The notes beneath the pieces were generated by a model. That model had not been told where the DNA came from, did no database searches, and saw nothing but the letters and a program-made list of their open reading frames with translations. Source: an uncultured Acidobacteriaceae bacterium (lineage in GTDB: Bacteria > Acidobacteriota > Terriglobia > Terriglobales > Acidobacteriaceae). Taken from it: 64,000 bases of DNA. The stretch lies in contig CAVYOX010000005.1 of assembly GCA_963770245.1 (NCBI GenBank), positions 169 through 64,168 of the forward strand. Reading direction: 5' to 3'. Shown piece after piece: positions 1,645-4,855 of this stretch. The position numbers and the translations under genes were made by a program. The first letter of the stretch is position 1; each line of letters begins with the position of its first letter.

Positions 1645-2145
1645 GCAGGCCCATCTGTTGACACCAATGCAGTATTGCGATTAAACCAGAAACACGGAGA
1701 CGAATCTATTGGACGATGGTATTGGGTGATGCCTTCGCGTTAGCCGGAGCCACGAGCGCGTACTCGCTCGAAAGATTTGTCGCTACGCGACACCACGCTG
1801 CGCTGACGTCCGTAACCCGATACCAAGCTCCAATGGCGTTCTCCACTGCAGTGGCGCATCTTTGTGTCATGAAAGTGCCGCCAAAAAAACCGCCATGAAG
1901 AACGCGCTCAGCCGTGTTATCAAAACACTGCCGGATTGATGTTAACGGCGTTTCATCGCGGCTTGGGAACACCGAAACTGCAAGCAGCACAAACGAAAAC
2001 TGGATCGACCGGTAGTCGATCACGGTTACGACTCCACCCACCACAAACTTATCCATCGCGACACAAAGTCGGAGTAGGGATCATGATTGCTCACAACCCC
2101 CTCCACGGATCCGGACAGGCGGATTTCCCGCATCCGGCTCTTGCC

Positions 2146-4483
2146 TTAGGTGATGACGCCCATGCGGCGCAGGGGATAGGGATGACAGACGGTAGGCAGA
2201 GGCAGCCAGCGAGTGATGAGACGCCGCATGCGGTCCCAGAGGACGTGTCCGTTCTGGCTACGCCGCGACAGCGAGCGATGCCAGAGTCGTCCCACTTGGA
2301 AGCGAAAAAGAGCCAGCGCCGGGTTGTTCATGGGCACTCCGTAATACCGGAGGTGCCCACGCACCACCGCTTGCAACCACTTGCCCTGTTCGGGGATGGG
2401 TTCGTGCATGCGCCGCTGAAGTTCGGCTTTCACCTGCATTCAGCTTCGCCTGCAGCCTTTTGCGGATCGTTTGCCGCAGCACCGTGTACATTCCGTTGCT
2501 CCTCTTCTTCACGCAGATATGCGTAAAGCCGAGAAAGTTGAATGTCGCGGGCTTCCCTTCTCCACGCCTTTGCCGGTTGTTGATCGCAAATCGGACCAAA
2601 TTCCAGCAGCCGCGTTTTCTCGGGATGCAATTCCAGGTTGAACTTCCTCATTCTTTCGGTGAGTTCCGCCCGGAACTGTTCGGCATCCGCTTTGCTCTGG
2701 AATCCAACCACGATGTCGTCTGCGAATCGCACGACGATGACATCACCGTGCGCCCGCTTTCTGACGCCACGCTTGGATCCACAGGTCGAACACGTAATGA
2801 AGATAGACGTTCGCCAAAAGCGGCGAAGCACTTCCGCCCTGAGGCGTTCCTTCCTCCACCCGTATTCGCTTCCCATCCTCCAGCACGCCGGCGTTCAGCC
2901 ATTTCTGGATGAGCCGCACGACACGCCGATCTGCAATCCGGTGCTCGACGAACTTGACCAGCCATTCGTGGGAAAGCCCATCGAAAAAACTTTTAATGTC
3001 AAGATCGAGCACCCAGTTCACTTTTCTCGTCAGCAGTCCCGTGTAGAGCGCATCCAGCGCTTGGTGCTGGCTTCGCCCGGGTCGGAACCCGTACGAAAAG
3101 CCGAGAAAATCCGTTTCATAAATGGCGTTCAACACCTCGACCGCCGCACGCTGGACGATCTTATCTTCCAGCGCCGGTACTCCGAGCGGCCTTTGCCGCG
3201 TCGGGATAGAACGCAGGCGCTGTGTCGGTGGGCAGCAGGGAGTTGCCGTTACCGGCTCCTCATCGGATCACGCCGGTGCCTCGTTCCGCGCCTCGATCAG
3301 TTTCCTACGTCCCCCCATTTCATCCCGGATGGCGGGATTTCCCCGATCCGGTTGGGGATAGCAGCTTTCCCCTTGGGCCTTTCCACGATGATCCGCCACG
3401 TTAAGCGATGGCCCGCATCCTTTGGCGACCACCTGGTTTGCTCCAAGGCTCGACGTGCTCGTTTTCACCGACCTTCTCCGGCCACAGTGTGCCGGATGGT
3501 GTGCGTTGCACGCCCGCCACTACCCAGGGCCCCTTTGCTCCGGAGGCATTACTCTCCATCATTGCTACTACGAGCCCATGCGCGTGTCCTGTGGCCTCCG
3601 TGCCCCTTCGACCTTAGTCTCGTAGGCACTGGTCTTCGCCGCTTATGCCATCCACGGCTGGTCCACCGGACCGTCCTAGCTTTGACTGTGTGGCTTCTTC
3701 CGAAAGTGTCGTGCCCAGTACGCCGGGTGCTCGCTCGGTGTATACGGTCGGTTTCTTCCCGTGCGACAACGGCCTTCGCCACCGACGGATGGCTCGGCGC
3801 ACTCCAAGTGTTCCCGCAAGCGACTTCACGCGGGCGCCAACTTTCGACGTTGCAGGCATTTCCTTCGATTACGACCCTCTCGTTCACTTGCCCTCCTGGT
3901 CGCTCCCACGCAGTTTCGCGCGGCGAGGGCTTTGTCGCTCGAGCTTGCTTGGGATTCGTTTCCTCCTCCCAAGTCGAGCCAGTTATCCGGTTGAATCGAC
4001 CAATTTCCGGAGCAGGATTCGCACCTGCTAGTCACAGAGTTTTGCTAGCTGCACCCATCGGCCTTGGCGATGTACACCCTACGCACCGGCTTCGCTCGGT
4101 ACGCTCCCTCGCTTCAGCCTATCGGAGAGGTCCTGGAGATTCTCCTCCAGGTCCTCGCCGTAGTGCCGCCACGTCTCTCCGTCCACACCGGGCGCGGCTT
4201 CCTTCTTCAGACTGAAGTAGGCCGTGCGCAGTGTTTCCAGGTTGTAGATGTGGTGCAGGAGCGCCGTGAACCGCAACTTCTTATCCTTTGCTGCTGCTTG
4301 ACGTACCCGCTCCAGCGCACTGGGCGCGTCTTCCCGGCTCGGTGTCCGGGACGCGTTTTGCTGGGGCAGGTTCCCTTTGGCCAGACCTCTTCCCTCCATC
4401 CCCTCCGCCGCCGGTTGCCCGGCCTTGTTCGGGGACTTCCTCGGTACTTCAGGTCTGTCCGACTTCCCAGGTCCGTTCGTCAT
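2146..4483 (-). pseudogene. group II intron reverse transcriptase/maturase, four frameshifts plus an 855-nt insertion
   Basis: The pieces lie in ORFs 4079..4483, 2743..3135, 2430..2876, 2258..2599 and 2146..2439. Recognisable stretches are LLHHIYNLETLRTAYFSLKKEAAPGVDGETW, YRAKPVRRVYIAKADG, RQRPLGVPALEDKIVQRAAVEVLNAIYETDFLGFSYGFRPGRSQH, VVRFADDIVVGF, FNFLGFTH and RGHLRYYGV. The frame changes near 4102, 2755, 2596 and 2437. Confidence 0.85.
3200..4054 (-). mobile_element. ORF-less group II intron nested inside the RT gene of the outer intron
   Basis: Removing 3200..4054 joins gat gg|g cgg caa, which gives ...YIAKADG-RQRPLGVPALEDK in frame. The insert starts GTGCAGCTAG..CTAGCAGGTG (the same GTGC-hairpin-AGGTG layout as the outer intron). 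It has a DV-like hairpin CCGGATCGGGGAAATCCCGCCATCCGG with a 2-nt bulge. Its DVI-like stem is ACGTAGG/CCTGCGT with a bulged A 8 nt from the end, ...TCTATCCCGAC. No credible ORF is present. Confidence 0.6.
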
Positions 4484-4855
4484 CGGCGTTCGTCCTTAGA
4501 CTTCCCGATGCGTCCCAAGGCTACTGCTGCCCTGGGCGGACCTGGGATCTCCCGGTTCCCGCGCGAGGTGCTTGCGTACGTGCACGGGGTCTCTGACCGC
4601 GCGGGACTCTGGCGCACCTCGCGATATCGGTGCACCCGATCGAGCCTTCCGCTTTCTCCTACAGCGTCGGCGTCCCGAAGTGATTGTCTTACGCGGCTGA
4701 ATACCCGGCCCGCACGCTCCCCTGTCAACGCTTCGACACCGCCCTTGCGAGCGGCTCCGCATGACTCGGGGCCGATGTGGGTCGCTGATCCACTTTCGTA
4801 TGACTTTTTCATTCACTACACCTCGCCGGTTTAGCCGGCGCACAGGAGAAAAGCA

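Follow-up and report, generated by a model that had tools for sequence, protein, structure and literature searches.

An open reading frame-less group II-derived element nested in the reverse transcriptase gene of a group II intron from an uncultured Acidobacteriaceae bacterium

Group II introns nested within other group II introns (twintrons) are known from Thermosynechococcus elongatus, Trichodesmium, Wolbachia and Methanosarcina acetivorans (PMC2882425, PMC4649490, PMC8919778, PMC4424553). In T. elongatus, introns TeI3a-e (family F3), which lack an open reading frame (ORF), sit inside the reverse transcriptase (RT) ORF of introns TeI4a-e (family F1), and identical inner introns in diverged outer ones were taken as a sign of recent, independent homing (Mohr et al. 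2010, PMC2882425). Sequential splicing has been demonstrated for the group II twintron of Trichodesmium erythraeum (Pfreundt and Hess 2015, PMC4649490), and the passages on M. acetivorans (Dai and Zimmerly 2003) in PMC4424553 describe ORF-less and ORF-containing introns that home site-specifically into group II introns and leave host genes unaffected. Here we describe such an arrangement in a 64,000-nucleotide stretch of contig CAVYOX010000005.1 (assembly GCA_963770245.1, positions 169 to 64,168; hereafter the window) from an uncultured Acidobacteriaceae bacterium, where a group II intron carries within its RT gene a second, ORF-less element of group II descent. The arrangement is rare but known; what is new here is the pairing of heterologous partners, the site in RT motif 1, the setting in Acidobacteriota and soil, and the non-canonical domain V (DV) of the inner element. 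No paper combining 'group II intron', 'Acidobacteria' and 'twintron' was found within the literature collection searched.

Scanning the window with the Rfam covariance models at gathering thresholds returned three matches, all of them within the twintron (2068..4843), which lies on the minus strand with every feature of both elements. Two matches belong to the outer intron (GUGCG...CUACUCCGAC): RF02005 (group-II-D1D4-6) at 4807-4587, with 164 bits against a gathering score of 49 (E=1.8e-47), and RF00029 (group II DV and domain VI, DVI) at 2142-2068, with 46.5 bits against a gathering score of 40. The third, RF02003 (group-II-D1D4-4) at 4030-3864, with 68.5 bits against a gathering score of 49 (E=6.8e-13), falls inside an 855-nt insert (3200..4054; GUGCAG...CUAUCCCGAC) delimited by ORF restoration and by eight matching loci. 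Excision of this block joins GG|G and yields ...YIAKADG|RQRPLGVPALEDK, placing the insertion in codon 143 of the RT, in the coding sequence of K(A/T)DG|RQRPLG, which is part of RT motif 1 and lies five residues into the RVT_1 domain. The inner element is thus wholly inside the outer one, its removal restores the continuity of the outer intron, and uninterrupted homologues exist at the DNA level. The nesting is real, and with these E-values for the two D1-D4 models and the recurrence of the arrangement at other loci it is far beyond chance. The window holds no further copy of either element and no other RT.

The closest parallels are the T. elongatus and M. acetivorans twintrons. In T. elongatus, too, an ORF-less intron sits at a single conserved position within the RT ORF of a second group II intron, itself mobile. 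The T. elongatus site lies between two start codons, allowing the intron-encoded protein (IEP) to be made without splicing, whereas here the insertion splits RT motif 1 at codon 143, so that RT expression from twintron copies would require prior splicing of the inner element. The hosts also differ, being cyanobacteria in that case and metagenome-assembled genomes (MAGs) of Acidobacteriota together with soil metagenomes in ours. In Trichodesmium erythraeum, too, one bacterial group II intron lies inside another, but that twintron interrupts a host protein-coding gene at a single locus, whereas the present one is intergenic, antisense to its neighbour and found at many loci. Site-specific homing into other group II introns is shared with M. 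acetivorans; as the passages in PMC4424553 have it, that archaeal system reaches up to five nested levels and involves related introns, compared with a single level and heterologous partners here.

The outer intron measures 1921 nt without the insert, and its 5' end, GTGCG, lies at 4843-4839. Uninterrupted copies at unrelated genomic sites (loci L001 and L002-L006) are homologous from TCTCCT|GTGCG to ...CCCTACTCCGAC|T; we place the 3' end at 2068 (...CCCUACUCCGAC) because the homology stops there, and the RF00029 alignment stops there too. Within the ribozyme, the domain I region (4587..4807) is the RF02005 match, DV (GAGCCGGAUGCGGGAAAUCCGCCUGUCCGGAUC, 2108..2140) has an AGC triad with its G facing A, and the 37-nt DVI (GGAGGGG...CCC-UA-CUCC-GAC, 2068..2104, by the RF00029 alignment) has a candidate branch-point A at 2075, bulged 8 nt from the 3' end. 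The RT/maturase ORF (2146..4483), which lacks an endonuclease domain, contains all tblastn RT matches of the window; in addition to the split after codon 143 it carries four single-base insertions (at about 4105-4108, 2761, 2591-2594 and 2435). When repaired it encodes 493 amino acids (aa), matches Pfam RVT_1 at 1.4e-38 and aligns end to end, at 95% identity, with P0001, its closest intact homologue (492 aa, uninterrupted), which scores 358 bits on TIGR04416 (NCBIfam, group II intron reverse transcriptase/maturase; cut-off 300). RT homologues number at least 8000; among the 120 matches listed, identity to the query is 87-95% and almost every protein has 492 aa, so that the 855-nt block is an insertion relative to the family norm. 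The outer element thus combines a GUGYG end, a D1-D4 fold, DV and DVI, an RT/maturase ORF and a pairing between exon-binding site 1 (EBS1) and intron-binding site 1 (IBS1), described below, as expected of a group II intron. Judged by its reading frame, the RT of the window copy is a pseudogene with four frameshifts. These are more likely real decay than assembly noise because ORFs of up to 1421 aa stay intact elsewhere in the window, and sequencing error, possible at any single site, is unlikely to lie behind them all.

Two further observations concern this ORF and its surroundings. Among ten family members, variable sites in the N-terminal 60 RT codons (about 4483-4304) are distributed 9/16/17 by codon position, compared with 106/63/259 in the remaining ORF; probably the first 60 codons are constrained as RNA (D2-D4a), or the true start codon lies further downstream. 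Gene finders also call a 110-aa ORF over the outer D1-D3, and make no such call in L001.

The inner element has no ORF, and tblastn finds no RT remnant in it. It starts with GTGCAG, followed by a hairpin with AGGUGCGAAUCCU inside the RF02003 match that marks its domain I 5' region (3864..4030); in its other copies the RF02003 score is 58-67 bits, above the gathering score in every one. The RNAalifold consensus places domain IV (about 170 nt) at 3356..3525. DV (CAACCGGAUCGGGGAAAUCCCGCCAUCCGGGAUG, 3321..3354) is canonical in architecture, with 34 nt forming lower and upper helices separated by a CC bulge and capped by a GAAAU loop, and is followed by a DVI of about 116 nt (3202..3317) with a basal stem GGGG/UCCC and a bulged A-U. 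The candidate branch-point A at 3207 lies 8 nt from the 3' end (...UAUCCCGAC), and two pairs of this domain, 747/842 and 748/841 in element numbering, change on both sides among the copies. Both elements end in a common 3' motif, UA-bulge/YYCC/GAC. The minimum free energy of folding (z-scores of -0.5 and -0.6) is not informative.

Much of this had been anticipated in an earlier note made from the letters of this stretch. It described a group II intron nested in another, the outer 5' GTGCG, RT/maturase ORF and DV-like hairpin, and the 855-nt block at 3200-4054 whose removal restores the RT frame, all of which our analysis bears out, the frame restoration exactly. The same goes for its picture of the inner block, with GTGCA plus a hairpin at the 5' end, a DV-like hairpin with a GAAA-type loop and a 2-nt bulge, a DVI-like stem whose bulged A is 8 nt from the end, and no ORF. 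Its outer 3' end, at 2074, was 6 nt off by the independent copies and the RF00029 alignment; the 3' motif that it gave as shared, ATCCCNAC, has to be replaced by the one above; and its account of an RT ORF interrupted by the block was right in that respect but did not mention the four additional 1-nt insertions.

The flanks of the insert suggest how its site is recognized. The last 7 nt of the 5' 'exon', CCGAUGG (4055..4061), are part of the coding sequence of RT motif 1 and constitute the putative IBS1. We infer its EBS1 to be CCGUCGG (3782..3788), which is invariant in all copies and lies in the loop of GCCA-UCCGUCGG-UGGC, in a hairpin setting, GCC-GA[hairpin]-(G)AA-GGC, that is the same as that of the outer EBS1. 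This heptamer has 7-bp complementarity to the CCGACGG flank in seven other copies; the flank reads UCGACGG in L015, and in the window CCGAUGG forms one G-U pair. The ends of the element are the same at all nine loci, and around the junction the target reads CCAAGNCCGACGG|GCGG or CCAAGRCCGACGG|GCGG. It is kept in 26 of the 26 uninterrupted host copies inspected, as CCGACGG|GCGG in 25 and as CCGATGG|GCGG in L001, which among uninterrupted copies is the most closely related to the window's host; there is thus no shortage of empty sites. A possible EBS2, CUUGG (inner positions 247-251), stands opposite CCAAG at -13 to -9, a sequence present in 9/9 occupied hosts and replaced by CGAAG in 15/26 empty ones; the assignment is only suggestive. 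We also considered a IIC-like target hairpin for the inner element and rejected it, as the conserved hairpin lies 27-50 nt upstream and does not adjoin the site.

Sequence comparison separates the inner element from its host. A sensitive blastn search between the two finds only 27 nt of DV alike, and their D1-D4 regions match different Rfam models, RF02003 for the inner and RF02005 for the outer. The inner element is colinear in D1 (two blocks), J2/3-D3 and DV-DVI with both intron copies at L014, an Alphaproteobacteria MAG. These introns match RF02003 at 85-87 bits, retain N- and C-terminal RT remnants and show a canonical DV (GAGCCGGAUGCGGGAAAUCCGCACAUCCGGUUC). Their DVI, about 125 nt in length, is homologous to the inner one, a long form that the outer intron does not possess; one of the two copies is detected by RF00029 (41.2 bits). 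By these comparisons the inner element belongs to another ribozyme lineage and is not a deletion derivative of the outer intron, contrary to the earlier note, which had derived it from the outer element's family. In T. elongatus the ORF-less introns arose by deletion from the host's own family, and it is this derivation of the inner ribozyme from the host intron family that we do not find here, the inner element being of a different lineage with a long DVI. At L014 itself (1340-4400, minus strand), the two RF02003-type introns have internally deleted RT ORFs and are separated by an array of ~120-nt repeats; each stands directly after the GGCAACC-CUUGU-GGUUGCC hairpin of a repeat, a IIC-like, hairpin-adjacent pattern.

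The same comparisons bear on the idea that the 855-nt block is not intron-derived at all and is instead an insertion sequence, a miniature inverted-repeat transposable element, another non-coding RNA gene or an assembly chimera. The lack of an ORF and of any DV/DVI covariance-model match would fit such an origin, but RF02003 scores above its gathering threshold in every copy, the colinearity with the L014 intron extends through D1, D3, DV and DVI, the ends show neither inverted repeats nor a target duplication, excision restores the ORF in exact phase and nine loci share the arrangement. We regard this explanation as very improbable.

To find further copies, we searched a genome set, with one representative for each GTDB species, for the pattern of the inner DV hairpin (six positions free, triad unconstrained). 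This yielded four loci, L008 and L013 in one 'Candidatus Acidoferrales' MAG and L012 and L015 in another. A scan of metagenomes with a pattern requiring CAAC...GGGAT added four further twintrons from soil metagenomes (L016, L018, L019 and L020). At all eight loci the inner element is full length (855 nt) and free of indels, with unchanged termini and an unchanged position in the host RT. In-silico removal leaves an intact 492-aa RT ORF in five of the six other complete copies (L008, L013, L015, L016 and L018), and one frameshift in the sixth, L012; the family therefore includes twintrons whose RT would be functional if the inner element were spliced out. Searches of the PLSDB plasmids by blastn with the inner element and of the IMG/VR phage contigs with a relaxed AAC-type DV pattern gave no match. 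One of the metagenome loci, L020, begins (1-40) with 27 nt that exactly repeat the final 27 nt of the inner element and abut an inner 5' end (...CTATCCCAAC|GTGCAG...). This head-to-tail junction of two inner copies differs from the element's normal target and could come from a tandem copy, from a circular form or from a cycle in the assembly graph.

The divergence of the inner element is decoupled from that of its host. The four MAG copies are 100% identical over 855 nt, and the host introns that carry them differ by 8-9%, in MAGs that represent different GTDB species; identical inner copies in diverged outer copies are also what T. elongatus shows. In pairwise comparisons of complete twintrons, divergence is lower in the inner element than in the host in 15/15 cases (ratios 0-0.75), and it is lower than in the host's ribozyme-only segments as well. 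Being identical in hosts 8-9% apart, the inner element therefore appears to move independently of the host. Near-identical whole twintrons also occur at two loci per genome (L008/L013 and L012/L015), which shows that the composite moves as a unit too, or is re-invaded quickly. From these patterns it is well supported that the inner element has spread on its own and that the composite has spread as well. Near-identical pairs of filled and empty hosts do not occur among the sampled loci, where the best match is 94.9%.

Substitutions within the element point to constraint on its fold. The six distinct inner variants differ at 111 positions without an indel, and in their RNAalifold consensus nine pairs show double-sided changes, compared with 0-2 in slid controls; 10 of 500 column shuffles reach nine. 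The clearest compensatory changes are those at the two DVI pairs named above, together with others in D4 and D2. In the block 631-770, which contains 113 positions unconstrained by the search pattern, there are 0 changes between the window copy and L008, with about 7.6 expected from the rest of the element.

We consider it likely that this minus-strand twintron arose when an ORF-less element of the RF02003 lineage inserted, by reverse splicing guided by EBS/IBS pairing, into the RT gene of an RF02005-type intron. The outer intron would be a retroelement of an abundant family whose RT has no endonuclease, and the inner one a ribozyme specialized for a single site in that family's RT gene. Excised inner RNA, with an RT supplied in trans, would reverse-splice into CCAAG-N-CCGACGG|G through EBS1-IBS1 pairing and then be copied into DNA. 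Dependence on an IEP in trans would be a further likeness to the T. elongatus inner intron. The RT might come from a candidate cognate intron or from intact copies of the host family, a possible source because empty intact copies abound. Priming of the copy at replication forks may be envisaged, as with other introns that encode an endonuclease-less RT (PMC4424553). Because the insert lies inside domain IV, the host ribozyme could still fold, and the composite could therefore move as a unit if an RT were provided in trans. The copy in the window is probably a decaying fossil, as its RT has four frameshifts and its IBS1 a G-U wobble; in its inner element, 3 of 4 private substitutions in paired columns break predicted pairs, compared with 3 of 14 in L008.

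Several observations weigh against this interpretation. At the position of the DV triad, which is AGC or CGC and binds catalytic metals (PMC4424553), the inner element has AAC, its bases being C-A-A-C on the 5' strand and G-G-A-U-G on the 3' strand, with one extra opposite purine. RF00029 does not match the inner DV/DVI even at E<=10, in either a 3.1-kb or a 191-nt segment. The 5' end departs from GUGYG in all six variants, which begin GUGCA, with A at position 5. Comparison of the inner D4 with the outer intron, as would bear on mimicry of the host's IEP-binding region, detects no similarity. The nearest host differences between L008 and L012 lie at -71 and +25 from the insert, which leaves room for short-tract recombination. 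Finally, all extra copies were retrieved with a DV-derived pattern, which partly forces the invariance of DV; AAC is confirmed independently only in the L008-type copies and at L010, both found with the triad-free pattern. Given the AAC triad and the missing RF00029 match, we classify the inner element as group II-derived by homology and not as a canonical ribozyme.

The departures in DV and at the 5' end, and the silence of RF00029, would be expected of a catalytically dead relic that was captured once or a few times, inactivated the host RT and has since spread only as a passenger of the outer intron. The near-identical whole twintrons L008/L013 and L012/L015, which show that the composite can move as a unit, and the clear decay of the window copy point the same way. 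A neutral passenger should, however, diverge at least as much as its host, whereas the inner element is the less diverged partner in every pair and is identical in hosts that differ by 8-9%. Nor does a dead relic account for 855 nt without indels across 111 variable sites, for the compensatory substitutions in stems, or for an AAC-type DV common to two diverged lineages (L010 and L017, below), the helix of which shows compensatory changes in L017. A dead relic is in our judgement unlikely.

Homologous recombination or gene conversion between hosts of ~90% identity, in place of reverse splicing, would be another way to carry identical inner copies into different introns, and the spacing of the differences between L008 and L012 makes an identical tract of about 950 nt possible. 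Yet L015 differs from L008 already at -7 and their inner copies are identical, and the tract of identity almost coincides with the intron boundaries. This route also leaves the 7-nt complementarity of EBS1 and IBS1 unexplained, and with MAGs of two GTDB species it would need transfer between genomes anyway. We think it quite improbable that the element spread in this manner. Insertion by reverse splicing agrees with the earlier note, whose proposal of retrohoming into the RT gene looks right in view of the 7-nt EBS1/IBS1 complementarity, the identical boundaries at nine loci and the identical inner elements in diverged hosts. Two checks that it had suggested turned out differently: boundaries are the same at all eight further loci, and covariance models of the inner block gave a match for D1 (RF02003) and none for DV/DVI (RF00029). 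The RF00029 failure is outweighed, in our view, by the D1 match, the homology, the covariation in DV/DVI and the recurrent exact boundaries.

Two additional loci indicate that the AAC-type DV, another feature unlike T. elongatus, is not confined to the twintrons. L010, in a Terriglobia MAG, was found with the triad-free pattern; its element (3175-3426, minus strand) is a 5'-truncated fragment of about 250 nt comprising the D4 end, DV and DVI, and it ends in UUUUCUAUCCCGAC like the inner element. Such a truncation is a pattern that incomplete reverse transcription would leave. L017, on a contig of about 42% GC, is an ORF-less, RF02003-type element (E=4e-7) with 59% identity to the inner element over 374 nt, plus DV. 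The upper DV helix is UCGG/CCGA in L010 and L017 and CGGG/CCCG in the inner element, a covarying difference, and across lineages upper-stem pairs occur as C-G, U-A and G-C. Two sites that touch DV in group II structures, intron position 5 and J2/3, also set AAC-type elements apart from the canonical relative L014. Position 5 is A in the inner element (GUGCA) and G in L014 (GUGCG); it is A in L017 in a tentative alignment, the 5' end of that element not being defined. J2/3 reads GCGCAU in the inner element and L017, and GCGGAGA in L014. To judge from three lineages, AAC-type elements possibly have a co-adapted core. More tentatively, the inner element, L017 and L010 might form a clade of ORF-less ribozymes that are still active with a remodelled core, invisible to DV-based surveys, and in the twintrons a hyperparasite of an unrelated intron family; we find this conceivable but doubtful.

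The outer family has a targeting preference of its own. Its EBS1 loop, UAGGAGAAA (4653..4661), in a hairpin CGCUG...GCGG, is a 6-bp complement of the 5' flank, so that AGGAGA would pair with IBS1 UCUCCU (4844..4849). On the plus strand this IBS1 reads AGGAGA, the Shine-Dalgarno sequence of a hydrolase gene with its ATG at 4856; the intron therefore sits antisense, directly upstream of a ribosome-binding site. We compared the flank in the window (4844-4858) with those at L002-L006, L008, L012, L013, L015, L016, L018, L019, L023-L025, L038-L040 and L042. At the junction, all 16 distinct sites carry (A)AGGAG, which is IBS1 in reverse complement, and across them the EBS1 variants UAAGGAGAA/U co-occur with CUCCUU flanks, a covariation of the two partners. 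An ATG or GTG follows 5-7 nt beyond the junction on the opposite strand at 15/16 sites, an ORF of at least 60 aa or a contig run-off lies beyond it at 14/16, and independent gene calls place the divergent gene start 13-14 nt from the intron 5' end. A relative with 66% identity on a Burkholderia thailandensis plasmid also follows this rule, 12 nt from an annotated start codon, and a Ralstonia copy is placed similarly. At the sites examined, then, the family inserts antisense, directly upstream of host Shine-Dalgarno sequences and start codons.

We found no description of such Shine-Dalgarno-antisense targeting in the literature searched, and it is not among the context-specific intron families in the relevant part of the 2025 account in PMC12584367. 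Subgroup IIC, as portrayed in portions of PMC4424553 and PMC12584367, resembles the outer family in its short EBS1-IBS1 pairing to a generic intergenic signal and its endonuclease-less RT; subgroup IIC targets terminator hairpins, whereas the outer family targets the antisense Shine-Dalgarno by the start codon. At L002-L006 (about 2628-2641), an outer-family intron adjoins the start codon and Shine-Dalgarno sequence of an IS110-family transposase, and the junction is identical before two different downstream contexts.

Just beyond the intron 5' end in the window, the alpha/beta-hydrolase (chloroperoxidase-like) gene at 4856-5712 (plus strand) is in two frames with a break near 5010, where GGTTACGGGTCATT seems one C short of ...TAC CGG GTC...; it could be a pseudogene severed from its promoter by the 2.8-kb insertion, or the break could be a sequencing error. 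Further along, an ORF at 6569-7975 (minus strand) contains four tandem copies of a 240-nt unit (6877-7896; 93%, 92% and 71% identity to the first copy), which would give an 80-residue protein repeat.

Should the inner element prove active, AAC in place of the triad would be a natural departure from one of the most conserved features that group II introns have in common with the spliceosomal U6 RNA, and the changes at position 5 and in J2/3 would be part of that departure. The survey method described in PMC8919778 relies on RF00029 for DV/DVI, and surveys of this type miss AAC-type elements; bacterial ORF-less introns may therefore be under-counted, a caveat already stated in PMC4424553. Insertion beside ribosome-binding sites is a separate lead on how introns pick low-cost sites. 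Few twintrons are known from bacteria, and those studied best consist of sibling introns, whereas here one lineage targets the RT gene of another. The inner element would thus be a parasite of a parasite, having to borrow its reverse transcriptase.

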